NCBI GenBank assembly: GCA_016935485.1
Contig: JAFGQW010000084.1
Span: 1,450-65,449 of the forward strand
Reading direction: 5' to 3'
Source of the DNA: Planctomycetota bacterium
GTDB taxonomy: Bacteria > Planctomycetota > JAFGQW01
Length of the DNA stretch: 64,000 nucleotides
Shown here: positions 7,733 through 56,136 of the stretch, in pieces
Numbering within the stretch: position 1 is the stretch's first letter
Layout: each line of letters starts with the position of its first letter
Notes under the pieces: model-generated
What the model was told of the DNA's origin: nothing
Database searches by the model: none
Seen by the model: the letters and a program-made list of their open reading frames with translations, nothing else
Program-made: the position numbers and the translations under genes

Positions 7733-8221
7733 ATGAAGACGGGATTCAAGCAAATCCTCTTTCCCACCGATTTTTCCGAATCCGCAGCGCTCGCCGTGCC
7801 TCTCGCCCGCAAGATGGCGGAAGCCTTCGACGCCGAGATCACCTGCCTCCACGTCGCCGAGGACCCGATCCAGGAGTGGATCGGCTCCTGGAGCCTGGTT
7901 CCCGACAGCTCCGAGCCGGCGGCCGAGGGAGAGCCGGTGGCGTGCCGGACCGCCGCCTTGCACCAGCTGCGCACGTTCGTCGGCCAGCACTTCGCCGGTC
8001 TGAAGAAGAAGTGCCGGTTCGAGGTCGTGCGGGGCAAGCCCACCGAGGAGATCGTCCGCTATGCCCGCGAGCACGGCTTCGACCTCATCGTGATGGGCGG
8101 CCACGCCTACGGCGAGGTCGCGCCCGGTCTGCACGAGACCACCCCGGATCGCGTCATGCGCTCGAGCTCCACGCCGGTGCTGGCGGTCTCGGAGCCCGCG
8201 CCCGAATTCATCCGGCTCTGA
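7733..8221 (+). CDS. Universal stress protein (UspA family), paralogue of the previous gene.
   Basis: Internal Met of ORF 7397..8221. KQILFPTDFSESA and LIVMGGHAYGEV...STPVLAV. 162 aa. Confidence 0.8.
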   Translation: MKTGFKQILFPTDFSESAALAVPLARKMAEAFDAEITCLHVAEDPIQEWIGSWSLVPDSSEPAAEGEPVACRTAALHQLRTFVGQHFAGLKKKCRFEVVRGKPTEEIVRYAREHGFDLIVMGGHAYGEVAPGLHETTPDRVMRSSSTPVLAVSEPAPEFIRL

Positions 8222-8444
8222 GGGCCCGCGCGAGAGCCACGACCCGTTCTCGCGGATCCTCCCGCCGAGGTCCGCGCTGCCCGGAAGTCCGTGGCACCTC
8301 GCCGCAGGCGTCGCCGGCACGCCGGAGCGTTCGGCGTTGCCGGCACCGTGGATTCCACCCCGCCGGCCGCCGTTCCCATTCCATTCGGCGCGCCGTCGGG
8401 CATAATGGAGCGGCCGCCCCGGTCGCCCGTGAGAAGGAGTCGCC

Positions 8445-18200: not shown

Positions 18201-20039
18201 ATGCGGCGCGCGCTCGCTCTGGTCGCCTTGCTCGTCCTCGTGGCGCTCCCCCTCCGCGGGGCGCTCGACGTCGGTTTCCTGCAGGACGACTACAACGTCG
18301 CCCAACTGCTGGGCTCCGAGCTCGCCCTGGACGGGCCGACCCTCTACCGCCTCTTCCACCCGCCGGCCGACGAGCAGGACGCGCGACTACGGCCGCTGAC
18401 GTACCTGACCCTCGCCCTGGATCTGGCCGTGTTCGGGCTGGACCCGCTGGCGCTGCACTTGAGCGGGCTGCTCTTCCACCTGATCTCGACGGCCCTGGTC
18501 TTCGTCCTGGCAGGCGTGCTTGCCCCTCGGGCGCGCGCCTTCCCGTGGGTAGCCGCCCTGTTCTTCGGGCTGGCACCGGTGCACGCCGACGCAGTGGCCT
18601 GGCTCGCGGCGCGCGCCGATCCGGTCGCAGGCACGTTCGTGCTCGCCACCCTGCTCGCCTACGTGCGCTACCGGCGCACCGCCCGCCCGCTCGCCGCCGC
18701 GGCTTGCCTGCTGCTCTACGCGGCCGCGCTGCTTTCCAAGGAAGCCGCGGTCATCACCCCCGGCCTCGCCCTCCTCCTGGAGCCGGCGCTCCGCCGGCGC
18801 CCCCGGCCCGGCGGCCTCGTGCCCGCCCTGAGCGGGCTGGGCCTGCTCACCGCCGCCTACCTGCTCTACCGCCGTCATCTCTTCGGCGTCTTCCTCGGCC
18901 ACTACGGAGCCCGCGATGCCGCCTCGTGGTCCGTCGCTCCCGGCGACGTGACGTATGCCGGCCGCATGTTCCTCGCGGACGTTCCCGGGTCCGCCCTCGC
19001 GTCGGTGCTGCTCCTCGCGCCGATCGTCTTCGGAGCCGTCTGCCTTGTCATCGCGCGCCGTCCGCTCCGGGCGCGGTCGATCGCCGCCGGAGCGCTGCTC
19101 TTCCTCCTCGCGATCGTCGTGGCCGTGCTCCCGGTCGCGCCGTTTCTCGGCCAGGCCAGCGGCCGGCACTTCTATCTCGCGGCCGCACCGCTCGCCGGCC
19201 TGCTGGCGGCGGCCGTGACGGTACCGCGGCGGCGCGCGGCGGGAGCAGCGCTCCTGCCGGCCGCGCTCGTGCTGCTGTACGGAGCCGCGTCCGTCCTCGG
19301 GCTCCGGACGCGCATCGAGATGTACGTCGAGGCCAGCGCGATCACCGCAGCGGTGGCCCGAGACCTCGGGGCCCTGCGGGCCGCACACCCCGACGTGGCG
19401 GTCTTCGTGGTGGGCGACCTGCGGAGCGCCTGGCGCCGCGCACCGCTGCTGCACTCGGGCGCGGCCGGACTGGCGCAGCCGCCGTTCCAGCGCGAGCCGG
19501 TGCCGATCCGCGCGCACTTCGCCGGCCAGCCTCGGGACTACCGCTGGGAAGCGTACGTGATCCGCAAGCCGGCCGTCTTCCTTCGCCTGCGGACCGCCGC
19601 GCCGCTGCCGGGGCTCGAGCCCGTGTCGCCCATCCTGCGCTCGCTCCCGCCGCGGGAGGAAGACCCGGCCTACGCGTGCCTCTCTCCCGCCGCCGGCGCG
19701 GCGGTCCGCCTCGACGGCGACACCCCGTTTCGCTTCCGCATCCCCGCCGACCTGCCCTGGCCGATCCGCCTGGTGTTCGCGCTGCCGGGAGACCGGGTCG
19801 CGCCCCTGCTGATCGGAGCAACGAACGTCGTGGAGGAGCCCCCCGCTCCGGACCGGTCCCGCACGCTGGTCTGGCGGCCGCGCCAGGGCGCCCTCGGCCT
19901 GGCGGCGGCGCTGCCGCTCGAGGCCCCGCCCGCCGCGCCGGTGGGGGCGGCCTGGTGGATCGAGGAGGCGGACCTCGAGCACGCCGGCGTCCGGACCGTC
20001 CGCGCGAGCCCCGTCGCGCGATTCGTGGTCCAGCCCTGA
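18201..20039 (+). CDS. GT-C-fold glycosyltransferase-like polytopic membrane protein (PMT/TMTC-like), paralogue 1. It has an N-terminal TM bundle and a ~230-aa C-terminal soluble domain.
   Basis: 612 aa. First-loop motif FLQDDYNV. About 10-11 TM helices. The same architecture and motif are shared with the genes at 22140 and 24539. Confidence 0.6.
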   Translation: MRRALALVALLVLVALPLRGALDVGFLQDDYNVAQLLGSELALDGPTLYRLFHPPADEQDARLRPLTYLTLALDLAVFGLDPLALHLSGLLFHLISTALVFVLAGVLAPRARAFPWVAALFFGLAPVHADAVAWLAARADPVAGTFVLATLLAYVRYRRTARPLAAAACLLLYAAALLSKEAAVITPGLALLLEPALRRRPRPGGLVPALSGLGLLTAAYLLYRRHLFGVFLGHYGARDAASWSVAPGDVTYAGRMFLADVPGSALASVLLLAPIVFGAVCLVIARRPLRARSIAAGALLFLLAIVVAVLPVAPFLGQASGRHFYLAAAPLAGLLAAAVTVPRRRAAGAALLPAALVLLYGAASVLGLRTRIEMYVEASAITAAVARDLGALRAAHPDVAVFVVGDLRSAWRRAPLLHSGAAGLAQPPFQREPVPIRAHFAGQPRDYRWEAYVIRKPAVFLRLRTAAPLPGLEPVSPILRSLPPREEDPAYACLSPAAGAAVRLDGDTPFRFRIPADLPWPIRLVFALPGDRVAPLLIGATNVVEEPPAPDRSRTLVWRPRQGALGLAAALPLEAPPAAPVGAAWWIEEADLEHAGVRTVRASPVARFVVQP

Positions 20040-20162: not shown

Positions 20163-21236
20163 ATGAAACTGTCGTGTGGCCTCGGGTTCGGCTGCCTGGT
20201 GCTGGCCGCGGTGCTGGCTGCCCTCCCGTCGGCGGGCGCCCAGTCCGCCGGGGAGCGGTACAACCAGATCCTCCAGGAGACCGAGGAAGACTACTACAGC
20301 TGCGCCAAGGTCAAGGACAAGAAGGCGCGCGAGAAGGCCTACATCGAGCACGGCCAGCGCGCCACGGCCCTGTGGGAGGGCTTCCTCCGCGACCATGGTG
20401 AGACCTCCATGGCCTTCAATGCCAGGCTCAACCTGGCGCAGGCGCTCGACATGGCCAAGGAGACGGCGCGCGCCCGCGCGGTGATGGAGGAGGCCGCAGC
20501 CGCCGCGTACACCTTCCGCGAGATCACCCAGGCGGCCGAGATCACGAAGATCGTCTGCCACAGCGTGAAGGACGCCTACGACGTCATCGAGCGCGCCATG
20601 GCGAAGGTGGACGAGCCGGAGATGAAGGGCTCCCTCCACCTGGAGCTGTTCAAGTACCTCGAGATGCCGAAGAACCTGCAGGCGGACGAACAGCCGGCCC
20701 ACCGGAAGAAGATGTACCGCGAGCTCGCCGAGGCCATCGTCAAGCAGTATCCGGACACGAGCGCCGCCAAGGAGGCCGGGCTGATTCTCCGCGGGCTGGA
20801 CCTCAAGGTGGGCGATCCGCTGCTCAATCTCGCCGACTTCACCGACGCCGCGGGCGACCCCATCGATCTTGCCGCCTACTCGGGCAAGGTGGTCCTGCTG
20901 CACTTCTGGACCGGTCCGCGGAACGCCCGGCGCTCTCTCCAGACCCTCGTGAACCTCCACGGCGAGCTCCACCCCAAGGGACTCGAGGTCGTGGGCATCA
21001 ACTGCGACTACGCGGAGGACCACGAGCGCAACATGCTGGCCATGATCGAGGCGCTCGGCATCCCGTGGCGCAACTACCACGACGGCCAGAAGCTGCACAA
21101 CCGGATCGCCCGCATCTTCCACGTGCGCAAGTACCCCAGCAACATCGTGATCGGCCGCGACGGCAAGATCGCCGCCCTCGACGTCCCCACCGCCCAGCTC
21201 GAGGACAAGCTCCGGGAGCTCGTCGGCGGATCGTGA
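20163..21236 (+). CDS. Secreted TlpA/redoxin-like thioredoxin-fold protein with an N-terminal helical domain. The active-site CxxC is replaced (FWTGPRNARR), so it is predicted redox-inactive.
   Basis: Signal peptide (LVLAAVLAALPSAGAQS). The C-terminal ~150 aa are colinear with TlpA/ResA (GKVVLLHFW...LEVVGINCD...YPSNIVIGRDGKI), but both catalytic Cys positions are T and R. Confidence 0.7.
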   Translation: MKLSCGLGFGCLVLAAVLAALPSAGAQSAGERYNQILQETEEDYYSCAKVKDKKAREKAYIEHGQRATALWEGFLRDHGETSMAFNARLNLAQALDMAKETARARAVMEEAAAAAYTFREITQAAEITKIVCHSVKDAYDVIERAMAKVDEPEMKGSLHLELFKYLEMPKNLQADEQPAHRKKMYRELAEAIVKQYPDTSAAKEAGLILRGLDLKVGDPLLNLADFTDAAGDPIDLAAYSGKVVLLHFWTGPRNARRSLQTLVNLHGELHPKGLEVVGINCDYAEDHERNMLAMIEALGIPWRNYHDGQKLHNRIARIFHVRKYPSNIVIGRDGKIAALDVPTAQLEDKLRELVGGS

Positions 21237-21261: not shown

Positions 21262-21846
21262 TTGGCCATGATCGACCGCTTCCAGGTGAAGGGCGCCGGC
21301 TCCTCGGCGCTCGTGGTGATCGACGTGCAGACGCGGATGGTGCAGGCGCTCGCGCCCAAGGTCGTGCGCCGCAACGTCGGCAACATGGCGCTGCTCCTCG
21401 AGGCCGCACGCGCCCTCGCGATCCCGATCCTCGTGACCGAGCACTACCCGCAGGGGCTCGGCCCGACGATCGAGTCCCTCGGGCCGCTGCTCGCGGGCGC
21501 GCGCACCCTGGAGAAGATCGTCTTCAGCGGCACCGGCGCGCCGGGCTTCCGCGAGGCGCTGCGCGCGACCGGCCGGGAGCACATCGTGCTGATCGGCACC
21601 GAGACCCACGTCTGCGTGGCCCAGACCGCGCTCGACCTCCTGGCCGAGGGCTACCACGTGCACGTCCCCTCGGACGCCGTGCTGTCGCGCTTCACGGACG
21701 ACTGGCAGGGCGGGCTGGCCTTCATGCGCCAGGCGGGCGCCGTGGTCACGCGCACCGAGACGCTGGTTTTCCAGTGGCTGGAACGGGCCGGCACGGAGGT
21801 CTTCCGGCGCCTGTCGCCCCGCATCAAGAACCGCAGCGCCGAGTGA
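21262..21846 (+). CDS. Isochorismatase-family (cysteine hydrolase) protein.
   Basis: 194 aa. SALVVIDVQ at the N-terminus. Catalytic Cys context (IGTETHVCVAQTALD). Lys and Asp positions are conserved. Confidence 0.78.
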   Translation: MAMIDRFQVKGAGSSALVVIDVQTRMVQALAPKVVRRNVGNMALLLEAARALAIPILVTEHYPQGLGPTIESLGPLLAGARTLEKIVFSGTGAPGFREALRATGREHIVLIGTETHVCVAQTALDLLAEGYHVHVPSDAVLSRFTDDWQGGLAFMRQAGAVVTRTETLVFQWLERAGTEVFRRLSPRIKNRSAE

Positions 21847-22139
21847 ACGGGCCCGCGCCGGACTGACTTCCCCGGGTTTCGCCGCGAGGTTCGGGTTCGT
21901 GGGGCGCGAAGCCGGCTCCAATCGGCGATGCCACCGACGCTCCGCCGCGCGGACCTCGGCAGGAAGATCCGCGAGAACGGGAAGCGGTTCCGGCACGGGC
22001 CCCAAGGTCCGGGCCGCGCCGTATTGACTCCCCGGCCCCGCCCGCGTACATTCCCCCCCTGACGCGGGGGGACTCGCCGGCGGCGCGAACCGCCCGCGCG
22101 GCCAGACCGGGTCACCCGCCGCCCCAGGAACCCATTGGC

Positions 22140-24542
22140 ATGACCGACAAGCCCCACCCCGCCGGCCGGACGACCGTCGCGCTGGCCGCCATCGCCGTGA
22201 TGATCATAGCCGCCGTCGCCTACCTGCCGGCCCTCGACGACTCGTTCTTGCAGGACGACTTCCTCCTCGTCGGGCAGTTCTTCACGGACACCGGGACCTT
22301 CGAGCTCCCCCGCCAGCCCGCGCTGACCTTTCCCACCGGGTTCCTTCCGTTCTGGACGCACGTTCTCGACAGCTACCTCTGGGGCGCCCACGCCGTCGGC
22401 CACCGCATCACCAGCCTGCTCGTGCACGTGCTCGCCGCGCTGCTGGTCTTCGTGCTGGTCCGCAGAGTCGCCGGCGGCCGGACCCTGGTGGCATTCCTCG
22501 CCGCCGTCTTCTTCGTCCTCTCACCGCTGCACCTCAACGCCGTCCACTGGATCTCGGGACGCTCGCTCACGCTCGCGATCGTCTTCCTGCTCCTCGCCGC
22601 GCTGGCGGCGACCCGCCGCCGGCCCGCGCCGGTGCTTTCCGCCACGGCCTACCTGGCCGCGCTGCTCTGTCACCCCGCCGCCTTCACCGCGCCGCTCGTC
22701 GCGCTGCTGGTCGACGTGGTGGCCGGGCGCGGCGCCTGGCGCGGCCGCCTGCTGACCATCCACCTGCCGCTGCTCGCGCTGATGGCCGCTTACATCGTGT
22801 TCCAGTCCACGACCGGCGAGCGCCTCTGGCACACCCGGAACGTCCGCGCCGCGCTCGCGCCTGCGGTCCTCCTCGACACGCTCGCGCGCCTCATCGTCCC
22901 GCTCAACGAAGCAATCACCAACCCGGCCAAGGCCCCGCTGCTCAAGTGGGGCGTGCTGCTGGGTCTCCTTCCCCTGCAGATCCTGGTGCTGATCGTCCGC
23001 CGGGCAGCGCCGCCGCGTACGTTCTGGGTGGGGCTGATCTGGTTCGTGGTGATGCTGATCCCGATCCTGCCGTCGGCGCGCCTCGGGACGGAGCTGGCCG
23101 ACTCGCGCGTCTTCTACGGCGTGGTGCCCCCCCTTGCTCTGATGCTCGCGGCGCTGTTCCTCGCCGACACAGCGGTCTTCCGCCCCTCCGCCGGACGCGC
23201 CGCGGACCGCCGCGCGCTCGCCCGCGCCACGGTGTTCGCGCTGGTATTCGCGGTCTCGCTTGTCCTGGCGCTGGTCAAGAACGGCCAGGCCTACGCGGGC
23301 GCCGGCCGCCTCGTGCGCCACGTGCAAGACGCTGCGCTCGAAGCCGCGCGCGGGGAATCCGCGGATTCGTGGATCTACCTGATGGAGCCTCCGAGTGCCT
23401 ACGCCGGCGCGCCGGTGTTCGCGACGGGCCTCAAGCGGGCGCTCGCCCCGCCGTTCAGGACCGCCGCCGAAGCCCGCCGGATCGGCGTGGTGCACGTGCG
23501 CGACATGGCGCCGCTGCTCGAGCGCCTGCGCGGGGTCCACCCGCCGCTCGTCGTGCTGTGGATGCACGCCGCCGGGCTGGAGCCGCGCCGTCCGTTCGCG
23601 CGGATCTCGCCGCTGTTCCCGGCAACCGGCGAGCCCGACGAGCCGTTCCTGCCGCCACGGTTCGCCGGCGCGGAGCTCGCCACGTGGCGGCCAGACAGCG
23701 GGCTGGTCGGCGCGGCGGACGAGCGGGGTTTCGTGGGCCAGACCTCGAGCGAGGATCCCTGGCTGCTGTCACCACCGATGGTGATCCCGAGCGACTGGAT
23801 CGAGGCGGTCAGCGTGCGGATGAGCGTGCACGGCAGCCGGGAGCCCGTGCTCCCGGTGGATCTCTTCTGGGCCGAGCTGTCCCGGCCGGACGCCTTTCGC
23901 CCCGAGCGCTCCTGCCGCCAGTTCGTGCCCACGACCGGCGCGATGGAGACCCTGACTTTCGCGCTTTCGCCGCCGGACGGCGCCCGGCCGCCCGAGCGGT
24001 TTCTCGCGCGGCTCCGGCTCGATCCGCCCCCCGGGCCGGCCGCGGTGCACATCGAGTCGATCGCGCTCGTCCCGGGGCCCGGGTGCCCCTGCGCGCAGCG
24101 CGTGGCGGCATCCTGGGAGGGCCCGGAGCTCGCCGGCTGGACGGTCGCGCCGGGCACCACCGGAAGGCTCGAGAATAGCGACCTCGTGCTGCGGACCCAG
24201 GGCGTGGACCCCTACGCCGTCTCTCCGGTTCTCGACCTTCCGGCGGCCGCCCTGCGGGGGATCGAGGTCGCGCTGCGCGTGGACGCCGCGAGCACCGAGG
24301 CGGCGATCTACTGGGCCACGGACACTCCGGAAGGCTTCTGCGAGGAACAGCGCCTGCCCTTCACGGTCGCCGCCGGCGACGGCCAGTTCCACCGCTACAC
24401 GCTGTGGTTCCAGGAACGCGCTCGGCTGGCGCCGGACACGCGGATCCGGGCCATTCGCGTCGATCCGATGGCCGGTCCCGGCACGGCCTGGATCCGGCTC
24501 GTGAAGCTGTACCAGGACGCCCTCGACAGAGCACGACGATGA
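22140..24542 (+). CDS. GT-C-fold glycosyltransferase-like polytopic membrane protein (PMT/TMTC-like), paralogue 2, with a ~290-aa C-terminal soluble domain.
   Basis: 800 aa. First-loop motif SFLQDDFLLV. Multiple TM helices. The C-terminal domain is unrelated in sequence to paralogues 1 and 3. Confidence 0.6.
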   Translation: MTDKPHPAGRTTVALAAIAVMIIAAVAYLPALDDSFLQDDFLLVGQFFTDTGTFELPRQPALTFPTGFLPFWTHVLDSYLWGAHAVGHRITSLLVHVLAALLVFVLVRRVAGGRTLVAFLAAVFFVLSPLHLNAVHWISGRSLTLAIVFLLLAALAATRRRPAPVLSATAYLAALLCHPAAFTAPLVALLVDVVAGRGAWRGRLLTIHLPLLALMAAYIVFQSTTGERLWHTRNVRAALAPAVLLDTLARLIVPLNEAITNPAKAPLLKWGVLLGLLPLQILVLIVRRAAPPRTFWVGLIWFVVMLIPILPSARLGTELADSRVFYGVVPPLALMLAALFLADTAVFRPSAGRAADRRALARATVFALVFAVSLVLALVKNGQAYAGAGRLVRHVQDAALEAARGESADSWIYLMEPPSAYAGAPVFATGLKRALAPPFRTAAEARRIGVVHVRDMAPLLERLRGVHPPLVVLWMHAAGLEPRRPFARISPLFPATGEPDEPFLPPRFAGAELATWRPDSGLVGAADERGFVGQTSSEDPWLLSPPMVIPSDWIEAVSVRMSVHGSREPVLPVDLFWAELSRPDAFRPERSCRQFVPTTGAMETLTFALSPPDGARPPERFLARLRLDPPPGPAAVHIESIALVPGPGCPCAQRVAASWEGPELAGWTVAPGTTGRLENSDLVLRTQGVDPYAVSPVLDLPAAALRGIEVALRVDAASTEAAIYWATDTPEGFCEEQRLPFTVAAGDGQFHRYTLWFQERARLAPDTRIRAIRVDPMAGPGTAWIRLVKLYQDALDRARR

Positions 24543-26863
24543 GCACTGAGCCACCGCGGACCGCGAGCACGACCGTCTACACCGCGCGCTACCTCCTCTA
24601 CTCCACCGCCGGACTGCTCGCTGCGGTGCTCGTCGGCTACGCTCCCGTGCTGGCCAACCCCTTCCTGAGCGACGACCTCAACTTCCGGGTGTTCTTCCGC
24701 GGCGCCGAGCTCGACTGGGCGCGGATCCTCGGCGAGCTGTGGAGCGGCTGGGGCGGCCTGGTGGGCGCCGACTACTACCGGCCGCTGCTCACCGCGTCGG
24801 TGGTCGTGGACTACCTCGCCTGGGGAGCGAACCCGTTCGGCTGTCATCTGACCAACGTGCTGCTTCACACGCTCAACGCCACGCTGGTCGCGCACATCAT
24901 CATGCGGATCGCCGGCCCGGGAAAGCGCTACCCGGCGCTCCTTGGCGCGCTGGTCTTCGCCGTGCATCCCGTACACCCCGAGGCCGTTGCCTGGATTGCC
25001 GGCCGGGTCGATGTGCTCAGCGCCTTGTTCTTCCTGCTCACGGTGCGCTGCTACCTCGCCTATCGCTGGACCGGCCGGCGGCGCCACCTGATCGCCTCCC
25101 TGGTCGCGCTCGGCCTTGGGCTCGGCTCGAAGGAGTCGGCGGTGATGGCGCCGGCGGTGCTCGTCGCGCTCGACCTCGGGCTCAAGCTCGCGCGCGGCAC
25201 GCCGCGCTGGGGTCTCGGCGCCCGGACAGCGGTGCTCGCGCCGCTGGCCCTCGTTGCCGGCTACGTGGTGCTGCGCAAGCTGGTGCTCGGGAGCGTCGCG
25301 GGCAGCCAGGACCTACTGGCCCCCTACGCATCGGCCGGCGCGCTCGTCGCGACCCTCAAGCAGACGAGCATGAAGCTCTTCCTCCTGGTCGCGCCGGCCA
25401 ACCCCGCCGCGACGGGTCGCACGGGCGCCGCACTCTTCCAGGGGGCGGTGATCCTGATGATGCTGCTGCCGTTCCTCGCGCTGCTCACCCACGGCAAGCG
25501 CACCATTCCGGGGCCGCTTCTCGGCGGCGCGCTGATCCTCTTTCCCCTCGCGCTCGTGAGCCACATCCTGGTCGATCCCGACAACCTCGCCAACAGCCGG
25601 GTGCTCTACCTGCCGGCCGCGGGGTTCGTCGTGATGCTCTACTCGGCGCCGTGGGATCCGCGGGTCCGGCACGAGCTCCGCCGCCTCGGAGCGGCGCAGA
25701 TGGCCGTGCTGTCGCTGCTGATCGCCGGCGCCTACTTCGTCATGCTCCGCCTGAATCTCCGCCCGTGGACCGAGGCCGGTCGCATCATGAACACGCTCGT
25801 CCGCGAGGTCGACCGCGTCGAGGCCGACACGCCCGGCCACCGCAAGATCGTGGTGAAGGGGCTGCCCGACGTCCACCAGGGCGCCTACGTGGCGCGCAAC
25901 GGCTTCGTCTTTGCGCTGGTCCGCCCGTTCCACCACCGCGACATCACGCGGGTCTTCCCGGTGCTGGACTACTTCTACGGCCGCGACCCTGGAATGCTGC
26001 GCGCCGTGCACGGGGACCGGACGCGCATCGTGCTCTGGGACCTGGCGCGCCACCGACTGCTCGACCTGCCGCCGCCCCAGGAGGCCACCCACCAGATGAG
26101 CGCAGAGGACGGGCGCGCCTGGGCCGATCTGGCCGGCGGCGCGTGGACGCCGGAGCCCGGGCTCGAGCGGCAGGTGCACCCCGACGGCGGAGTGACGCTC
26201 GTCGCGCGGCGCGAGGGCGCCGGCCTGCGCGGCCCGGTGATGCGCATCTCCCCCGAGGCACTGCCGGCGCTCCGCTTCCGGCAGGCCGGCACGGCGCAGC
26301 TCGCGCTGGGCTGGTCCACGGCCGCCGAGCCCGACGTGTTCCCGACGAGCCCGGTGATGACGTTCCCGCCGCACGCGGGCGAGCGCACGGTGGCCCTGGT
26401 GAACCACGCCACCTGGTACCTGCCGGCCGCCCCGCCGGTGGGCCGACTGCGCCTTTCGGTCTGGCCGCAGAATACACCGCTGGTGCTCACCGACTTCACC
26501 CTCGTCCGGAGACTGCCGCGCCTGCCGCTCGCCATCGAGACCGAACCGCTGCTCCCCGAACCGGGAGCGCCCCTGGTGCTGCCGCTGCTGCGCTGCCCCT
26601 ACACGCACTTCAAGATCGTGATCCTCAACCCGGCCGCCCCGCACGCCGTGGCGATCGCGCGCCCGGCGGAGGCGGACACGCCGCTCGTGGTGCCGGCCGC
26701 CGGGCTCGCGCACCTCCACACCGTGGCCTGGGCGCTCGGAGGCTTCGAGGCCCTGCTGTATGTGGACGCGGTCGAGCCCGACCTGAACCCCCTCACCACC
26801 CGCGCGCGCAGCCGCCTCTTCACGGTGCGCTTCGCGGGCGCGGTGCGCCCCGGGCGGCGGTAA
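24539..26863 (+). CDS. GT-C-fold glycosyltransferase-like polytopic membrane protein (PMT/TMTC-like), paralogue 3. It is translationally coupled to paralogue 2.
   Basis: Internal Met of ORF 24404..26863. Its ATG overlaps the upstream stop (ATGA). First-loop motif PFLSDDLNFRVF. 774 aa. Confidence 0.6.
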   Translation: MSTEPPRTASTTVYTARYLLYSTAGLLAAVLVGYAPVLANPFLSDDLNFRVFFRGAELDWARILGELWSGWGGLVGADYYRPLLTASVVVDYLAWGANPFGCHLTNVLLHTLNATLVAHIIMRIAGPGKRYPALLGALVFAVHPVHPEAVAWIAGRVDVLSALFFLLTVRCYLAYRWTGRRRHLIASLVALGLGLGSKESAVMAPAVLVALDLGLKLARGTPRWGLGARTAVLAPLALVAGYVVLRKLVLGSVAGSQDLLAPYASAGALVATLKQTSMKLFLLVAPANPAATGRTGAALFQGAVILMMLLPFLALLTHGKRTIPGPLLGGALILFPLALVSHILVDPDNLANSRVLYLPAAGFVVMLYSAPWDPRVRHELRRLGAAQMAVLSLLIAGAYFVMLRLNLRPWTEAGRIMNTLVREVDRVEADTPGHRKIVVKGLPDVHQGAYVARNGFVFALVRPFHHRDITRVFPVLDYFYGRDPGMLRAVHGDRTRIVLWDLARHRLLDLPPPQEATHQMSAEDGRAWADLAGGAWTPEPGLERQVHPDGGVTLVARREGAGLRGPVMRISPEALPALRFRQAGTAQLALGWSTAAEPDVFPTSPVMTFPPHAGERTVALVNHATWYLPAAPPVGRLRLSVWPQNTPLVLTDFTLVRRLPRLPLAIETEPLLPEPGAPLVLPLLRCPYTHFKIVILNPAAPHAVAIARPAEADTPLVVPAAGLAHLHTVAWALGGFEALLYVDAVEPDLNPLTTRARSRLFTVRFAGAVRPGRR

Positions 26864-48083: not shown

Positions 48084-50858
48084 TCAGGGCACGCCCGCTT
48101 CACCCGCCAGGTAGCGAGCGCAGCGCAGGCCGAGGAACTTCGTGCGCAGGACCGGCGGGTAGCCGACCCGCGTGTTCACGCGCAGAAACTCGGGCGAGTG
48201 GAACCAGGACCCGCCCCGGACCAGGTAGCCGCCGGCCTCGGGATGGGGCTCGAGGCACCACTCCATGACGTTTCCGGCCATGTCGTGGCAGCCGAACGGC
48301 GAGCGCCCTTGCGCCAGGGACATCACCGGAAGGGGTCCGGCCGCGTCGCTCCCGAGGTAGTTGGCGTAGTGCCGCTGGGGCGCGCCGTCGCCCCACGGAT
48401 AGACGGCCTCGGGCACGCCGCGCGCCGCCAGGACCCAGGTGGCGTCGGTCATCAGGCTCTTGCCGGCCCACCGGGCGTAGGCGTAGGCGTCCCACCAGTC
48501 CACCCCGACCACGGGCAGGTCGTCGGCCGCCAGCGCGGGATCTCCCCAGAACGCCGGCGTGCGGTCCTTGCCGGTCGGCTCGGAGGGATGCGAGTAGCGG
48601 CGCGGTTCGGCCGCCTCGCGGCTCCACTCGAGGAAGCGCCGGTACTGCGCGTTGGTGACCTCCGTGACATCCACGAAGAACGGCTCGGTCGTCGAGCGCC
48701 GCGGTCGGCCGCGCCCGTCGCGCACCACGAACTCCACCCCGGGAACGCGCACCATGTAGGACCGGTCCTTCAGCGAGAAGAACTTGTCGCCGCGCGGCTC
48801 GAGCTCGGGCGGCACCCACCCGGGGTGGTGGAGCTGGATCCGGGTGATCTCGCTCCGGTGTCCAGCCCGGTCCTCCACCGCGAAGCTCAGCTCAGGGTGG
48901 AGTCCGCTCACCGGCACCGTGAATGTGAAGCGCCGCTCCTCGAGGGTCACGTCCTGCTTCTCGGGTTCGCACCAGACCGCCGCGATCGGCTCGCTCGCCT
49001 CGCCGCGCACCACGACCTGCGAGGCCTCGAGCACGGCGCCGGACCGCGGCTCGAACGCGGCGATCGTCGGCGGCCGGGTGTCGACGTGCACCGCGAGCTC
49101 GCGCACCAGCAGGTTGTCGCCGTGATCCCGGATCTCGATGCGGAACGTGTGGTCCCCCTCGGCGAGCCCGCGGCAGGCGAACGTGGACACGCCCTCGGCG
49201 TCCGGGGGCGCCACCTCGGCGCCCAGGCGGACCTCCTTGACGGGGTACTGCCCCAGGTGGACCTGGATCTCGCACTCCGCGGCGGTCAGCAGGGGTCCGG
49301 GAGGCGCCAGCGTGATCCGGAGCGCCTGGCCGATGCTCTCGTGAATGCGGTCGCGGATGGCGAGCAGGCGGTCGCGCGATTCCTCGCCGAATCTCAGCCC
49401 CAGGCGATACGTCTCCTGCGCCTCGAGCAGCCGCCCTTGCGCCGCCAGGGCGTCGCCCCAGAGCGCGTAGACGTGGGAGATTCCCTCACTCACCTCGGCG
49501 CGATCGGCGACGAGTTTCCCGGCCTCCTGGTACGCGTCGAGCGCAGCCGCGAATCTTCGCGCGCCGAGCTGCTGCGCCGCGTGCGCAAGCGCCGCGGCGA
49601 AGCGCTCCTCGGGCGTCGGCGCCGCCGGAGGCCCGGGCGGAGACGGTACCTCGGAAGCCGCCGCAGGGGCCGGCGCGGCGGGCGTCGGCGCGACAGCGGC
49701 CGGCGCGACCGGCGCCGCGGCAGGCGTCGCCGCGGCAGGCGGCGCCGGCGGACGCGCCGTCACGGACGCCGGCACCGGCCGCGGCTTATGCCGCGCGGTC
49801 TCGGCCCGGGCCGCAATCGCCCGGTCCGGCGGGGTCTGCCGGCGCTGGTGCTGGTAGAAGAACACTGCCCCCGCCACCGCCACCACCGCCACGGCAGCCG
49901 CCGCCACCAGCCCGAGCGGCCGGGGCCGCCGCGGCGGCCCCGCGCCGACCGCCGCCGCCGGGACCTCCAGGCAGGCGCGCACCTCGGCGGCCGTCTGGAA
50001 ACGCTCGTCGGGGTGCTTGGCCAGGCAGCCGAGGATGACCTGCTCGAGAGGCTCCTCGATGGAGGCGACGAGCTCGGAGGGCGCTTGCGGGACTTGGTGT
50101 ACGTGCGCGTACGCCACGTTGCCCTCGACGAACGGTGGCCGCCCGGTCCGGAGCTCGTAGAGGATGCAGCCCAGCGCGTAGAGATCGCCGCGATGGTCCA
50201 TGCCCTGGTGGAGCAGGTCCTCGGGCGGGGCGTAGGCAACCAGGCGGGCCCGGTTGGTGACCTCGCGATTCAGGGCCGTACGCTGCTCGCGGAGCAGGCG
50301 GGCCAGTCCGAACCCGCGCACCTTGATCGAGCCGTCGTCGAGGATCCAGACGTGCTCCGGACGCAGGTCGCGGTGGATGATCCCCGCCGCGTGCGCGGCA
50401 TCGAGCGCGCGGAGGATCTCGAGGCCGATAGCGTCGGCCTCGGCGGGCGCAAGCTGGCCGCCCTGGGCGAGAAAGGCGGCGAGATCCTGGCCGTCGAAGC
50501 GGTCCTCCACCAGGTAGCCGCACCGCTCGCCGGTCACGTAGTCCAGCACCCGGACGATGGCGTCGTCCCGGAGCTGGGTGAGGATCTCGACCTGCATCAT
50601 GAGCTGCTTCTCGAGTCGCTCGCTGGAGGTCAGCTCGGCCGGCAGGCGCGTGAGCACCACCTCGCGGTTGAGCTCGTGGTCGAAGGCCGGACGGGTCTCT
50701 CCGATGGCGCTCATCCCGACGGGACCGGTGGCCTCGAAACGCCCGAGCAGCAGCGATTCACGCGAGGAGGCCTCGGCGCCCGCTTTCCGCCCCCCGGGAG
50801 AAGACCCGGTCGCTCCACCGGCACCCGCGTTTGCCTCGGACGGTCTTGCTTCGGACAT
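48084..50858 (-). CDS. Membrane-spanning fusion protein. An N-terminal cytoplasmic Ser/Thr-kinase-like domain with degenerate catalytic motifs (a predicted pseudokinase) is followed by a TM helix, a Pro/Ala-rich linker, and a C-terminal FGE-sulfatase (formylglycine-generating-enzyme-like) domain.
   Basis: Start at MSEARPS with an AAGGAG RBS. Kinase subdomains are recognisable, but VAIK becomes VVLTRL, HRDLKPEN becomes HRDLRPEH, and DFG becomes GFG. TM segment LVAAAAVAVVAVAGAVFFY. FGE motifs RGGSWF and LGLRCA. 924 aa. Confidence 0.82.
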   Translation of the reverse strand: MSEARPSEANAGAGGATGSSPGGRKAGAEASSRESLLLGRFEATGPVGMSAIGETRPAFDHELNREVVLTRLPAELTSSERLEKQLMMQVEILTQLRDDAIVRVLDYVTGERCGYLVEDRFDGQDLAAFLAQGGQLAPAEADAIGLEILRALDAAHAAGIIHRDLRPEHVWILDDGSIKVRGFGLARLLREQRTALNREVTNRARLVAYAPPEDLLHQGMDHRGDLYALGCILYELRTGRPPFVEGNVAYAHVHQVPQAPSELVASIEEPLEQVILGCLAKHPDERFQTAAEVRACLEVPAAAVGAGPPRRPRPLGLVAAAAVAVVAVAGAVFFYQHQRRQTPPDRAIAARAETARHKPRPVPASVTARPPAPPAAATPAAAPVAPAAVAPTPAAPAPAAASEVPSPPGPPAAPTPEERFAAALAHAAQQLGARRFAAALDAYQEAGKLVADRAEVSEGISHVYALWGDALAAQGRLLEAQETYRLGLRFGEESRDRLLAIRDRIHESIGQALRITLAPPGPLLTAAECEIQVHLGQYPVKEVRLGAEVAPPDAEGVSTFACRGLAEGDHTFRIEIRDHGDNLLVRELAVHVDTRPPTIAAFEPRSGAVLEASQVVVRGEASEPIAAVWCEPEKQDVTLEERRFTFTVPVSGLHPELSFAVEDRAGHRSEITRIQLHHPGWVPPELEPRGDKFFSLKDRSYMVRVPGVEFVVRDGRGRPRRSTTEPFFVDVTEVTNAQYRRFLEWSREAAEPRRYSHPSEPTGKDRTPAFWGDPALAADDLPVVGVDWWDAYAYARWAGKSLMTDATWVLAARGVPEAVYPWGDGAPQRHYANYLGSDAAGPLPVMSLAQGRSPFGCHDMAGNVMEWCLEPHPEAGGYLVRGGSWFHSPEFLRVNTRVGYPPVLRTKFLGLRCARYLAGEAGVP

Positions 50859-51116
50859 GGAGGGATCTCCTTGCGCATCGCCTGCCAGCATCGGAAGCGC
50901 GGCCACACCGTGGGGCGCGGCCACACCGGAGTTTTTCGGCATGGGCGCCCTCCAGCCTGAGCCCGGCCCGGGTTCCCGCCCCGCGCCGGCCCGGCCGCTT
51001 CCGCCGGCGGGCGCACCTGGTAGAATGCCGCGGCAGTCCGCTTCGAGAGACGGCAGCGATCCGGAGCGCGGCAAGCCCGGGCATGCCGTGACCTTCGGAA
51101 CCGGAGGCGCCAGACG

Positions 51117-51476
51117 ATGCCGCACGTGACGATCGAGGGCGCGCTCGACCTCCGGGCGTTCTCAGGCGAGTTCATCCCCGTCGTCGAGCAGCTCCCCTGG
51201 GGCCTCCTCCGGATCCGCAACGTCTACCTCGACGCCCGCGGTCGCACGCTGCTGTTCGAGGCCCTGGCCATGGAAAGCGGGGCGGGGCGCAGTTTCCTGG
51301 TCCGCGTCGAGACCAAGCGATCCGACCGCCACATGGTGCGCCTCGACCCGATCGTGCCGGTGGACCGGACCCGCGGGGTCCGGTCGGCCGTGGTCTGGGT
51401 GGCGCGGAGGCTCCGCGACCGCAACCCCGGCTGCGCGTTCGGCACCACCAACCTCGCGGAGCTCGCCGGGTCCTGA
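51117..51476 (+). CDS. Hypothetical small protein (119 aa).
   Basis: ORF with coding-like composition, divergent from the kinase-FGE gene. No motifs recognised. Confidence 0.4.
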   Translation: MPHVTIEGALDLRAFSGEFIPVVEQLPWGLLRIRNVYLDARGRTLLFEALAMESGAGRSFLVRVETKRSDRHMVRLDPIVPVDRTRGVRSAVVWVARRLRDRNPGCAFGTTNLAELAGS

Positions 51477-51667: not shown

Positions 51668-52936
51668 ATGAGCTCTCGAAGGGTTCGCGCAAGAATAACT
51701 TCCCGGATTTCGCCGCGAGATTCTCGTTCAGGTTCCTGTGGCGGGAAGCCGGTTCGAATCAGAGATTCCACTGGCTTTCCGCCGCGCGGACCTGGGCGAG
51801 AAGAGCCGCGAAAACCGGAAGTCATTCTTGCGCGGGCCCTAAGGCTGTTCGCCTGTCTGCTGGCGCTCGCCCTCGCTCCGGACCCGGCGCTGCCGGCCCA
51901 GACCGGCGCCGACCAGGCCGCCGCTCGCGTGTTCGCCCGGCTGCTCGACGAGTTCGGCCCGGACGCCGAGCTGCGCTTCGTGCGCGCCTACAGCCATCTG
52001 GAACGGACCGAGTTCGCCCGCCTCTCCACCGAATTCCTCCAGAACCGCGAGAGCGCGCTGCGCCGGTTCCTGGCGCAGTTCGACGCCGCGGCGGAGGCCC
52101 ACCGCGCACGGGTGCTGCTCGCCCACACCCTCGGCTACCGCGAAGCCACGGCGGAGGCCGAGTCGCTGCTGAAGATGGTCATCCTCACCACCCCCGACGC
52201 CGAGCTCGGAAACGAGGCGCGTTTCACGCTGACCCAGCTCTACCGCAAGACCGATCCCATCCAGGCCCGCATCCTGCTCCGCGAGATCGCGAGCTCCAGC
52301 CGTCTCGACGACGCCTCAAAGGCGCGGGCGTGCCTCGAGCTGGCCGGTCTCCTCGACCGCAAGGCGGCGGTGCCGGTGCTGCGCGAGGGCGGGGCGCTGG
52401 CGGACAACAGCTTCGCACGCCGCTGCCGCTTGCAGCTCGCGCGGCTCACGCTCCGCGAGGAGGGACGCCTCCAGCCCGGCCAGCCGGCCCGCCCGTTCCG
52501 GGTGAAAGCCGTGGACGGCCGGGTGCTGACCGAGCTCGACTTCGCCGGCAAGGTCTACCTCATCTACTTCTGGAGCCGGCACATGCCGACCGCCGAAGGC
52601 GTCCAGACCTATCTCGGCGCGCTGCGCCAGAACTTCGCCGACGAAGGCTTCGAGATCCTCGGCGTCAACCTCGACGGCGAGCCGCCGCCGCTCGCGGCGG
52701 CGGCGGCCGAGGGGCGGCTGCCGTGGTGCGAGGTGGGCGACCCGTGGGGAGCGCTCACGGAGCTCGTGCTGCGCTATGCGCCCGACCCGCCGCCGTTTTG
52801 CATCCTGATCGACCGCGCCGGGTTGATCCGCTTCGAGGGCGACCCCGAGGCCCCCGAAGCCGCCACGCGCTACGCCGAAACCCCGCTCTGGAAGCGCGTC
52901 CTCCTGTCGGTGCGCACGCTCGAGGGGACCGCCTAG
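51668..52936 (+). CDS. Secreted TlpA/redoxin-like thioredoxin-fold protein with an N-terminal helical domain. The active-site CxxC is absent (FWSRHMPTAE). It is a paralogue of the 20163 gene.
   Basis: The C-terminal ~150 aa are colinear with TlpA (GKVYLIYFW...FEILGVNLD...PPFCILIDRAGLI). The start is uncertain. The only in-frame ATG gives a 56-aa Arg-rich extension before the hydrophobic signal segment (ILARALRLFACLLALALA). Confidence 0.6.
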   Translation: MSSRRVRARITSRISPRDSRSGSCGGKPVRIRDSTGFPPRGPGREEPRKPEVILARALRLFACLLALALAPDPALPAQTGADQAAARVFARLLDEFGPDAELRFVRAYSHLERTEFARLSTEFLQNRESALRRFLAQFDAAAEAHRARVLLAHTLGYREATAEAESLLKMVILTTPDAELGNEARFTLTQLYRKTDPIQARILLREIASSSRLDDASKARACLELAGLLDRKAAVPVLREGGALADNSFARRCRLQLARLTLREEGRLQPGQPARPFRVKAVDGRVLTELDFAGKVYLIYFWSRHMPTAEGVQTYLGALRQNFADEGFEILGVNLDGEPPPLAAAAAEGRLPWCEVGDPWGALTELVLRYAPDPPPFCILIDRAGLIRFEGDPEAPEAATRYAETPLWKRVLLSVRTLEGTA

Positions 52937-52975: not shown

Positions 52976-53452
52976 TCACGCGCCTTCCTCGAACTCCTTC
53001 AAGACGTCGTGGATCTCCGCCTTCTTGCGGGCCTTGCGCATGAACTGACAGTAGAGCTTGTTGCGCACCATCGAGGAGATCTTCTTCAGGATGTCGAGAT
53101 GCACGTCGGCCTGGTCCAGCGGCGCGAAGAAAAGGAAGAACAGGTAGACCGGCTCGCCGTCGACGGCGTTGAAGTCGATGCCCTTCTCGCTGCGCCCGAT
53201 GGCGCCCAGGACGTCGTCGATGAGATCGGTCCGGATGTGCGGGATCGCCACGCCGCCGCCGATTCCCGTCGAGCCCTCCCGCTCGCGCGCCAGCAGCTCC
53301 GCGACCAGGTCATCCACGACCGAGCCGGGGAAGGCCTCGTTCGCCACCAGCAGCTCGACCAGTTCCCGGATCACGCCCTCGGCGTCCGTCGCCTTGAGCT
53401 TCTCGGTGATGACTTTCCGGGAGAATACGTTGTGGAGTTTGTAGTTCTTCAT
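52976..53452 (-). CDS. ptsN: PTS EIIA component of the fructose/nitrogen-regulatory type (PtsN-like).
   Basis: Start at the internal ATG (MKNYKLHNVF). Phosphorylatable His context (GGGVAIPHIRT). 158 aa. Confidence 0.8.
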   Translation of the reverse strand: MKNYKLHNVFSRKVITEKLKATDAEGVIRELVELLVANEAFPGSVVDDLVAELLAREREGSTGIGGGVAIPHIRTDLIDDVLGAIGRSEKGIDFNAVDGEPVYLFFLFFAPLDQADVHLDILKKISSMVRNKLYCQFMRKARKKAEIHDVLKEFEEGA

Positions 53453-53564
53453 CTGCTCCGAGGCCTCTCCACCCAACCGCTCGCCATCCAGGCCGCTCCC
53501 GCCGTGATTCCGGGTCGCACACGCACCGCGCGGTCCGGCCGGCACCGGTGCGGTCCGGCCGGCG

Positions 53565-54011
53565 CTAGTGGTTGTCCAGCAGCTCCCAGAGGTCGTTCAC
53601 CTCCAGGTTGCGAATCGTGACGTGGTTGAACTCCTGCTCCTGGGCCAGCCGCGCGATCCGGGCCAGCATCTCGGTGTGGATCTGGATGCCGATCCTGGGC
53701 GAGATGAACTGGAAGACGAGATGGACCGGCCGGTCGTCCGGCGCCGCCCACGCGATGCCATCCACGCTCCGTCCCAGCACCGCCCGCACGTGCGCGACGC
53801 TCGTCACCCGGGCGTGCGGGATGGCCACGCCGTGGCCGATCGCCGTGGAGGCGAGCCGCTCGCGCTCGAGGATCTCCTCCTCGATCCGACCGGCCTCCGC
53901 GGCATCCATGCCGCCCTGCACCGCAAGTCCGTGCATCAGCTCGCGGATGGCCTCGAACCGATCCGACGCCTTGAGGTCGTGAATCTTCAGCTCGATCTTG
54001 TGGTCCGCCAT
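53565..54011 (-). CDS. Second PTS EIIA(Fru/Ntr-type) paralogue.
   Basis: 148 aa. His context (GHGVAIPHARV). Same fold pattern as the previous gene. Confidence 0.8.
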   Translation of the reverse strand: MADHKIELKIHDLKASDRFEAIRELMHGLAVQGGMDAAEAGRIEEEILERERLASTAIGHGVAIPHARVTSVAHVRAVLGRSVDGIAWAAPDDRPVHLVFQFISPRIGIQIHTEMLARIARLAQEQEFNHVTIRNLEVNDLWELLDNH

Positions 54012-54084
54012 GCCTGGCTCCTGGTTCGCTGGATTCCGGCTCGCCTATCGTGCCGCGTTGCCCCCCCTGCGGGCAGCGATTATG

Positions 54085-54140
54085 ACCGCAAATTAAGCCG
54101 GATCCAGAGACCTTGTTCAACTCCTTTTTCACCCGACCTC
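54085..54140 (-). promoter_or_regulatory. AT-rich island in a >70% GC background, immediately upstream of the EIIA genes. It is a candidate internal promoter or operator.
   Basis: The segment gattatgaccgcaaattaagccggatccagagaccttgttcaactcctttttcacc is visibly AT-rich. It contains TTGAAC and CATAAT hexamers on the minus strand, but their spacing is not canonical. Confidence 0.3.
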
Positions 54141-54174
54141 CAGCCGGCCTCACCGCGTGCCGGCCGCACGCCAC

Positions 54175-55920: not shown

Positions 55921-56136
55921 GACTCTCCTTGTTGCATCGATCGGGCACGATCTCAAGGGCGGCGTGCGCCCGGCCGTGGAAATGGCGCCGCGTAAAGGTT
56001 CCCGCGCCGGCTTTGACGATGGAAGCCCTGCGGACTACGATGGCCCGGGTCCGGCCCCGCGCTCCCGGTCGGGCCCGCGAGGCGCCGGGTCGGCAGACCG
56101 GAGCCCGATGGACCGCGCTGCCGGCGAAGGCCAGCC

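Follow-up and report, generated by a model that had tools for sequence, protein, structure and literature searches.

TlpA of Bradyrhizobium (1jfu/4txo), ResA of Bacillus (2f9s/4nmu) and CcmG/DsbE are extracytoplasmic thiol:disulfide reductases that carry both catalytic cysteines. The window analyzed here, a 64,000-nucleotide stretch from the genome of an uncultured planctomycete, encodes two proteins of this type in which both cysteines are missing: protein 1, at 20163-21236 on the plus strand, and protein 2, whose open reading frame (ORF) was called at 51668-52936 on the same strand. Compared to TlpA, ResA and CcmG, protein 1 also lacks the preceding tryptophan, both proteins have an extra tetratricopeptide repeat (TPR)-like domain of ~180 amino acids (aa), and no cytochrome c or Cu-oxidase maturation genes are found near either gene. 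A sequence-only reading had proposed that the window holds two TlpA/ResA-type proteins without active-site cysteines, and this proposal is borne out by the ORFs, by matches in Pfam and the PDB, and by the absence of cysteine from both active-site segments. Judging from the sequences, we consider it probable that the two are redox-dead binding or adaptor proteins of the envelope and that the likely partner of protein 1 is a membrane protein resembling type C glycosyltransferases (GT-C), encoded directly upstream.

Precedents for such a loss exist in another phylum. The TlpA-like domains 3fw2 (Bacteroides thetaiotaomicron) and 2lrt (Bacteroides vulgatus BVU_1432), both structural-genomics entries, have no cysteine at the CxxC position (FWASWNDSISQ and FTVYNNAMSAA, respectively) and rank with the top sequence hits of proteins 1 and 2 in the PDB. 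Their identity is ~20% and the solved chains consist only of thioredoxin-like domains of ~150 residues; they are a precedent for cysteine loss and none for mechanism. In the literature, we found no paper characterizing a cysteine-less TlpA-like or periplasmic thioredoxin pseudo-enzyme. Redox-inactive thioredoxin folds occur elsewhere, as in the b' domain of PDI and in CnoX (YbbN) of Escherichia coli, a holdase or "chaperedoxin" that combines a thioredoxin-like domain without CxxC and a TPR domain and binds client proteins. As in our proteins, CnoX joins a TPR domain to a thioredoxin fold unfit for dithiol reduction, a likeness for which no homology is claimed, but it is cytoplasmic, has the thioredoxin domain ahead of the TPR domain, and its thioredoxin domain is of the classical rather than the TlpA type.

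For the pairing of protein 1 with a GT-C protein, an analogy is offered by Ost3/Ost6 and MagT1/TUSC3, thioredoxin-fold subunits of the eukaryotic oligosaccharyltransferase (PMC4137057). In both cases a thioredoxin-fold accessory would stand beside a GT-C enzyme on the extracytoplasmic side, and the eukaryotic subunits hold acceptor polypeptides. They differ, however, in being membrane proteins with a functional CxxC, the homology is limited to the fold, and the bacterial pairing is known from gene order alone.

Two probably exported proteins of one shared architecture

Protein 1 (357 aa, identical to P0001) is marked as coding by a G+C content at third codon positions (GC3) of 0.94, in a window of 72% GC overall, and has a ribosome-binding site, GAAGGAGA, 6 nucleotides (nt) 5' of its ATG. 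The predicted Sec signal peptide, MKLSCGLGFGCLVLAAVLAALPSAGAQ, spans 20163-20243 (plus strand) and, read by eye from the translation, is typical of its kind (MKLSCGLGFGCLVLAAVLAALPSAGA/Q). The AGAQ of this leader is kept in most orthologs (5/7), with a degenerate site in P0002, P0006 and P0007. In the AlphaFold2 (AF2) model, residues 1 to 25 have a predicted local distance difference test score (pLDDT) below 50, followed by a TPR-like helical N-terminal domain of nine helices with pLDDT mostly >90 (aa 29 to 212; 20247-20798, plus strand) and by the TlpA/ResA-like thioredoxin-fold domain (aa 215 to 357; 20805-21233, plus strand). A lipoprotein nature was considered and rejected, since Cys11 is not conserved.

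Where does protein 2 begin? The ORF as called (422 aa) has a mechanical start at ATG 51668, which the sequence-only reading took as the beginning of the protein, and this start does not hold up. Although the ORF as a whole has a GC3 of 0.87 and is marked as coding, its first 153 nt look noncoding (GC 0.59), and GC3 rises from 0.45 at 51668-51820 to 0.83 at 51821-51928 and 0.93 thereafter. The NCBI model instead starts at GTG 51929 (335 aa), which cuts off the leader, and the same position is GCG in a 98%-identical strain. The orthologs open with an ordinary ATG and a signal peptide homologous to the hydrophobic LFACLLALALAPDPALPAQ segment that lies in frame in the window. No ATG, GTG or TTG precedes this segment in the window, and ATT 51824 is the sole start candidate positioned like the orthologs' ATG. 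The shift in GC3, the leader of the orthologs and the GCG of the sister strain together indicate that coding begins near 51821, giving a probable extent of 51824-52936 (plus strand) based on the GC3 profile and the homologous leader. Protein 2 thus probably carries a conserved hydrophobic leader and is a candidate exported protein. The description of both proteins as secreted is therefore clear by eye for protein 1 and depends, for protein 2, on the homology of this in-frame segment to the signal peptides of its orthologs.

The rest of protein 2 has the same layout. Its TPR-like helical N-domain (P0071 residues 2 to 176; 51932-52456, plus strand) has 10 helices with pLDDT mostly >90 and is the most conserved part of the protein 2 family, and the TlpA/ResA-like thioredoxin-fold domain follows at 52478-52933 (plus strand). 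The extra helical domains ascribed to the N termini of both proteins are thus confirmed, all-helical and confidently modeled, by AF2. Both N-domains are TPR-like and resemble CpoB/YbgF; a profile of the protein 1 N-domain matches the TPR domain of CpoB/YbgF (6g5s, E = 5.5e-5), the TPR-like 4y6w (3e-4) and 2xev (0.0065). This TPR domain (6g5s, 2xev) is the best structural as well as profile match; the resemblance is of a generic TPR kind, and in contrast to the situation here CpoB has no thioredoxin domain and works in a Tol-Pal context that is absent from these loci.

Over their last ~140 aa, both proteins exceed the Pfam gathering scores for AhpC-TSA, Redoxin and Thioredoxin_8. Their PDB matches include TlpA (1jfu/4txo) and ResA (4nmu); in NCBIfam, the TlpA and ResA matches fall far below the equivalog cut-offs. 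Each has a thioredoxin fold with the TlpA-type central insertion and retains the cis-proline loop opposite the active site, and each lacks the W-C-x-x-C dithiol at the N terminus of helix 1. Two other memberships were rejected: peroxiredoxin (AhpC/TSA, the best Pfam match), because both proteins have Ala at the peroxidatic position, where CxxC has its second Cys, and the ResA-like selenoproteins with WAxxUGC (NF041054), a weak match that reaches 24.8 bits where the cut-off is 300, there being no in-frame TGA and no internal stop. The Pfam scan of window genes turned up neither DsbD nor CcdA, the electron suppliers of reductases of this type.

Direct comparison of the two proteins by BLAST yields only 28% identity over 100 residues. 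With hhalign, their family profiles align at a probability of 98.3 (E = 1.4e-14) in 293 colinear columns, taking in the N-domains as well; on this comparison, proteins 1 and 2 are distant paralogs of one shared architecture, as the sequence-only reading had supposed.

Loss of the active-site cysteines is shared by all orthologs read

The former active site of protein 1 is the segment FWTGPRNARR (20904-20933, plus strand), the counterpart of (F/L)WATWCxxC(R/x)K with a 1-residue deletion and no cysteine. Residue-level alignment of HFW-TGPRNARR with the NLWATWCVPCRK of TlpA shows that the Trp is deleted, Cys1 is replaced by Pro and Cys2 by Ala. The corresponding segment of protein 2 is YFWSRHMPTAEG (52565-52600, plus strand), the counterpart of NFWGTWCKPCEK in ResA; aligned residue by residue, YFWSRHMPTAE against NFWGTWCKPCE, it has Met for Cys1 and Ala for Cys2. 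The strings WTGPR and WSRHM, previously given as the altered motif, are thus present in the proteins but were read in the wrong register, the Trp of the upstream F-W having been mistaken for that of W-C-x-x-C. Read correctly, W-C-x-x-C corresponds to G-P-R-N-A of protein 1 and to H-M-P-T-A of protein 2.

Both families share the loss in full. The CxxC cysteines are absent from all seven sequences of the protein 1 family (alignment A1, 41 to 55% identity) and likewise from three more orthologs read from DNA (L011, L012 and L019), and they are absent from 12/12 sequences of the protein 2 family (alignment A2, 53 to 71% identity). These counts include proteins 1 and 2 themselves, leaving 9 and 11 orthologs, respectively, at 40 to 71% identity. 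The search for orthologs with an intact CxxC, suggested at the outset as a check, thus returned none, and because the loss is common to all orthologs read, a sequencing error or a recent pseudogene is ruled out and was rejected as an explanation.

Nor is there a substitute within the fold, since neither thioredoxin domain has a conserved cysteine in any of its columns. Outside the fold, the N-domain of protein 2 does have an invariant pair, discussed below, which bears on the refuting condition set at the outset, a substitute cysteine pair elsewhere in the fold. In protein 1, Cys47 occurs in 6/7 and Cys281 in 4/7 sequences, and no conserved cysteine pair exists at all. With the dithiol replaced and no conserved Cys in the thioredoxin domains, both proteins are, as far as sequence can tell, incapable of thiol-disulfide exchange or peroxiredoxin chemistry.

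The pattern of conservation across the thioredoxin domain is uneven in the same way in both families. The 10 residues of the former active site are its least conserved part, with a mean majority fraction of 0.54 in protein 1 (0.70 in the rest of the domain) and 0.49 in protein 2 (0.68 in the rest). Invariance is found in the cis-Pro loop and the block that precedes it, which reads IPWRNYHDGxKLxN in the case of protein 1 and PWxEVGDxWGxLxELxLRYAPxPxP in that of protein 2; the strands next to the loop and the TPR-like domain are likewise invariant or strongly conserved. Pro325 of protein 1, within KYPSN (21129-21143, plus strand), occupies the position of the cis-proline in TlpA (GMPTS) and is present in every family member. 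In protein 2, the near-invariant block LPWCEVGDPWGALTELVLRYAPDPPP (52718-52795, plus strand) ends in the Pro that aligns with the cis-Pro of ResA; this third Pro of APDPPP, also aligned with that of TlpA, is invariant. Such a pattern would be expected if selection had relaxed on the old chemistry while still acting on the fold and its groove, and the non-redox interpretation of both proteins is well supported by these alignments.

Probable repeated loss of CxxC within a wider TPR-TlpA family

When 1.84 billion representatives were searched exhaustively with a profile, the family of protein 1 itself gained just two further clusters at 50% identity. The next matches are full-length relatives (E 1e-44 to 1e-24), and in P0112, P0113, P0116 and P0120 the profile is matched over positions 10 to 359, with both domains colinear. 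The metagenomic P0112, P0113, P0116 and P0148, full-length and colinear with protein 1 at 27 to 30% identity, have the same architecture but keep the canonical FWATWCGPC and do not stand beside GT-C genes. One cysteine is left in P0114, P0163, P0243 and P0248, and none in P0120, P0176 and P0185.

The tree of this architecture family was built by neighbor joining with bootstrap, and its deep nodes are weakly supported. Protein 1 and protein 2 fall into separate clades, each with 100% bootstrap; the protein 1 clade is sister to {P0112, P0114, P0120}, a clade supported at 99%, with 61% for the pairing, and active and degenerate members are intermixed in at least three further clades. Pairwise scores are 137 bits for protein 1 and P0112, 52 for protein 2 and P0112, and 32 for proteins 1 and 2. 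Since each protein is nearer to CxxC-bearing relatives than to the other, two independent losses in their lineages are the more likely and more parsimonious history, which agrees with the original view of two independently retained redox-dead copies, and the distribution of active and degenerate members suggests several independent losses across the architecture family.

Among 310 related TlpA-like domains, 61 (~20%) have no CxxC, and 42 of these have no cysteine at all in the segment. Many of the CxxC-less domains sit in tandem with an active one, suggesting that dead TlpA domains are generally used as partners of active ones. Together with the cysteine-less PDB entries, this frequency shows that the loss is widespread, and the present case is less special than was first implied.

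Two side observations concern these relatives. The proteins P0121, P0122, P0124, P0129, P0130, P0136 and P0138 are large multidomain proteins with tandem TlpA-like domains, one bearing WCxxC and another without it. The P0112 gene (L008 5822-7062; L009 2118-3358) comes from the same metagenomes as orthologs of both dead proteins, and by this co-occurrence the lineage seems to keep one active and two inactive paralogs; it adjoins fabG-fabF-acpP, and a 58-aa ORF stops 3 nt ahead of its start.

Protein 1 follows a TPR-less GT-C-like gene

Directly upstream of protein 1, at 18201-20039 (plus strand), lies the gene of a 612-aa polytopic membrane protein. Going by its distant homologs, this protein would be TMTC/PMT_2-like (GT-C); it carries no TPR array. 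Queried directly with phmmer and Pfam, the protein itself gave no Pfam or PDB match. The distant homologs (phmmer, E 1e-12 to 1e-4), membrane proteins that have TPR arrays at the C terminus, carry PF08409 TMTC_DUF1736 (37.7 and 39.7 bits; cut-off 27) or PF13231 PMT_2 (29.3 bits; cut-off 26.1), and an acidic pair runs through the 612-aa family and these homologs, with D30 invariant and D29 nearly so. A profile of the family and its distant homologs, compared with the PDB, was swamped by TPR matches and uninformative on the membrane domain.

Two paralogs of the 612-aa protein are encoded further downstream on the plus strand, one of 800 aa at 22140-24542 (34 to 35% identity over ~140 to 200 N-terminal residues) and one of 819 aa at 24404-26863 (PMT_2 E = 0.0033; 30% identity over 379 aa), the true start of the latter probably lying further downstream. 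Pfam finds no TPR match in any of the three, versus TPR arrays in the homologs P0094-P0111. Each of the three ends in a different non-TPR C-terminal domain. Given the TMTC/PMT_2 matches of the homologs and the paralogs downstream, the "GT-C island" in which protein 1 was said to lie is real, though its proteins are TPR-less.

Protein 1 starts 123 bp past the 612-aa gene on the same strand, and no terminator-like or promoter-like site was found in this gap. A 612-like gene stands immediately upstream, on the same strand, in 7/7 lineages with a readable protein 1 ortholog (the window, the P0003 locus, L001-L003, L010, L011, L012 and L019). The outer flanks of these loci vary, with a DinB-like insert, differing upstream genes, and an isochorismatase gene that may be present or absent. 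This isochorismatase-family hydrolase (21262-21846, plus strand; Pfam E = 5e-35) is the usual downstream neighbor of protein 1, being found there in the P0003 locus, L010, L012 and L019 and missing from L011. From this gene order, protein 1 and the upstream GT-C gene are probably in the same transcript.

Proposed function and its alternatives

Both genes would encode envelope proteins composed of a signal peptide, a ~180-aa TPR-like domain and a TlpA/ResA-type thioredoxin fold, maintained by purifying selection as "pseudo-oxidoreductases." Thioredoxin-fold proteins hold substrate backbones at the cis-Pro groove. In the mechanism we propose, the TPR-like surface and the retained groove would offer a binding site for a periplasmic partner or client polypeptide, the role being that of a noncatalytic adaptor or holdase; from these features we infer the peptide-binding or chaperone-like function that the sequence-only reading had offered as an example. 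For protein 1, the likely partner would be the TMTC/PMT-like GT-C protein encoded directly upstream, itself without the TPR array of its homologs. For protein 2, no partner can be named.

Two extensions go further. By analogy with the eukaryotic subunits, protein 1 might supply substrate-recruiting functions in trans to the TPR-less TMTC/PMT-like GT-C protein, an idea that we hold tentatively and judge rather doubtful. Bolder, and slightly more doubtful still, is the notion that protein 1 could serve a bacterial TMTC/PMT-like protein glycosyltransferase as its dedicated periplasmic subunit, independent of redox chemistry, providing a TPR module in trans and an acceptor-holding groove as a CxxC-free counterpart of Ost3/Ost6/MagT1, and that members of the TPR-TlpA family would in general be adaptors that bind clients, with thiol chemistry an option that has been lost repeatedly.

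Several observations weigh against the adaptor reading and its GT-C partner. In L020, a 612-like gene (58% identity) is not followed by any TlpA-like gene; GT-C adjacency is also absent for P0112, P0116, P0120 and P0176, further members of the architecture family, active or dead; and the 800- and 819-aa paralogs are also TPR-less and yet have no TlpA-like partner gene. A single narrow clade supplied all of the orthologs, and their conserved gene order could thus reflect inherited synteny rather than an operon. Protein 2 is monocistronic, between a Ser/Thr kinase-FGE (formylglycine-generating enzyme) gene and convergent phosphotransferase system (PTS) EIIA/PtsP genes, in a conserved synteny that is uninformative. 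Between protein 2 and its counterpart in the 98%-identical strain there are 6 nonsynonymous and 4 synonymous differences, numbers too small for a verdict on constraint. The GT-C link of protein 1, seen in gene order, is only suggestive.

Among the alternatives to binding or adaptor proteins, the one that fares best, though we consider it unlikely, is that the thioredoxin fold now harbors a new catalytic or ligand site of a non-thiol kind, such as a Sco-like metal site or one for a small molecule or glycan. Such a site would use the invariant PWRNYHDGxKLxN of protein 1 and PWxEVGDxWGxLxELxLRYAP of protein 2. However, CxxC-bearing relatives have nearly the same block (WRHYFDGxGWxN), in which the His of protein 1 is Phe, and a block common to these relatives is an inherited subfamily feature rather than a new site. 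Moreover, there is no conserved metal-binding cysteine or histidine cluster, and the turn of the former active site is variable.

Could redox activity have been kept through other cysteines? Protein 2 has two in its N-domain, Cys135 (P0071 numbering; RACLE, 52331-52333) and Cys166 (RRCRL, 52424-52426), both on the plus strand and invariant in 12/12 sequences, which might form a redox-active or metal site. They lie in helices 128-139 and 161-176, two helices apart, and alternate repeat helices can pack together. Yet the pair is in the TPR-like domain, outside the thioredoxin fold, and its 31-residue spacing in helices suits a structural disulfide of an exported protein, which Cys135-Cys166 may form. 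Protein 1, in turn, has no such pair, and retained redox activity is in our judgment very unlikely.

That the genes are decaying relics, whether nonfunctional genes, pseudogenes or products of sequencing error, is hardly credible: the canonical start codon of protein 2 has probably been lost to a palindromic element in this genome and the 6 to 4 ratio of changes is not clearly purifying, but orthologs down to 40% identity have intact ORFs of full length, in which many positions of both domains are invariant, a GC3 of 0.93 to 0.94 is typical of the genuine genes of this genome, and the loss recurs in every ortholog read.

A palindromic element at the 5' end of protein 2 and the neighboring genes

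A near-perfect palindromic repeat of ~160 nt with 24-nt terminal inverted repeats lies on the 5' end of protein 2 (51680-51840, plus strand), with a predicted RNA minimum free energy (MFE) of -115.8 kcal/mol (z = -11.5). A second, diverged copy at 21849-22008 (plus strand) is 76% identical to the first (MFE, -93 kcal/mol; z = -1.8) and lies past the stop codon of the isochorismatase gene and ahead of the 800-aa gene, with a promoter-like site after it at 22024-22052; a half copy is found at about 8218-8304. In the 98%-identical strain (L035, element at 1772-1937), homology to the window starts exactly at the left end of the element, indicating that the element marks a point of rearrangement or insertion. 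It has probably displaced the original start codon of protein 2, and translation from ATG 51668 would run through the palindrome. Similar inverted-repeat pairs occur on other metagenomic contigs, so the element may resemble miniature inverted-repeat transposable elements. A search of Rfam with the palindrome returned only sub-threshold look-alikes of microRNA hairpins.

As for the surroundings of protein 2, the kinase-FGE gene (48084-51125, minus strand) encodes a 1013-aa protein in which a Ser/Thr protein kinase domain is fused to a C-terminal FGE-sulfatase domain; in the related genome L004, the two parts are separate adjoining genes. A small gene upstream of protein 2 is conserved in 1/4 loci. 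On the other side (52976-55956, minus strand), two tandem PTS EIIA(2)-type genes are followed by a PtsP/Enzyme I gene, an arrangement kept in all related loci. No PTS permease was found among the scanned window genes, so these PTS genes look regulatory (nitrogen-type).

Implications for the family

The database names given to these proteins, "TlpA family protein disulfide reductase" for protein 1 and "redoxin family protein" for protein 2 (both from NCBI), are probably wrong, and the same probably applies to about one-fifth of related TlpA-like domains. Pending experiments, the finding amounts to a well-documented but ordinary loss of a catalytic site. To our knowledge, very little is known about TMTC/PMT-like protein glycosylation in Planctomycetota, and if the GT-C link is true, proteins such as protein 1 would be accessory subunits for bacterial TMTC/PMT-like protein glycosylation. 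More broadly, the family presents a thioredoxin fold that has repeatedly shed its chemistry and has nevertheless been conserved, which makes it a useful case for the study of pseudo-enzymes in the bacterial envelope.

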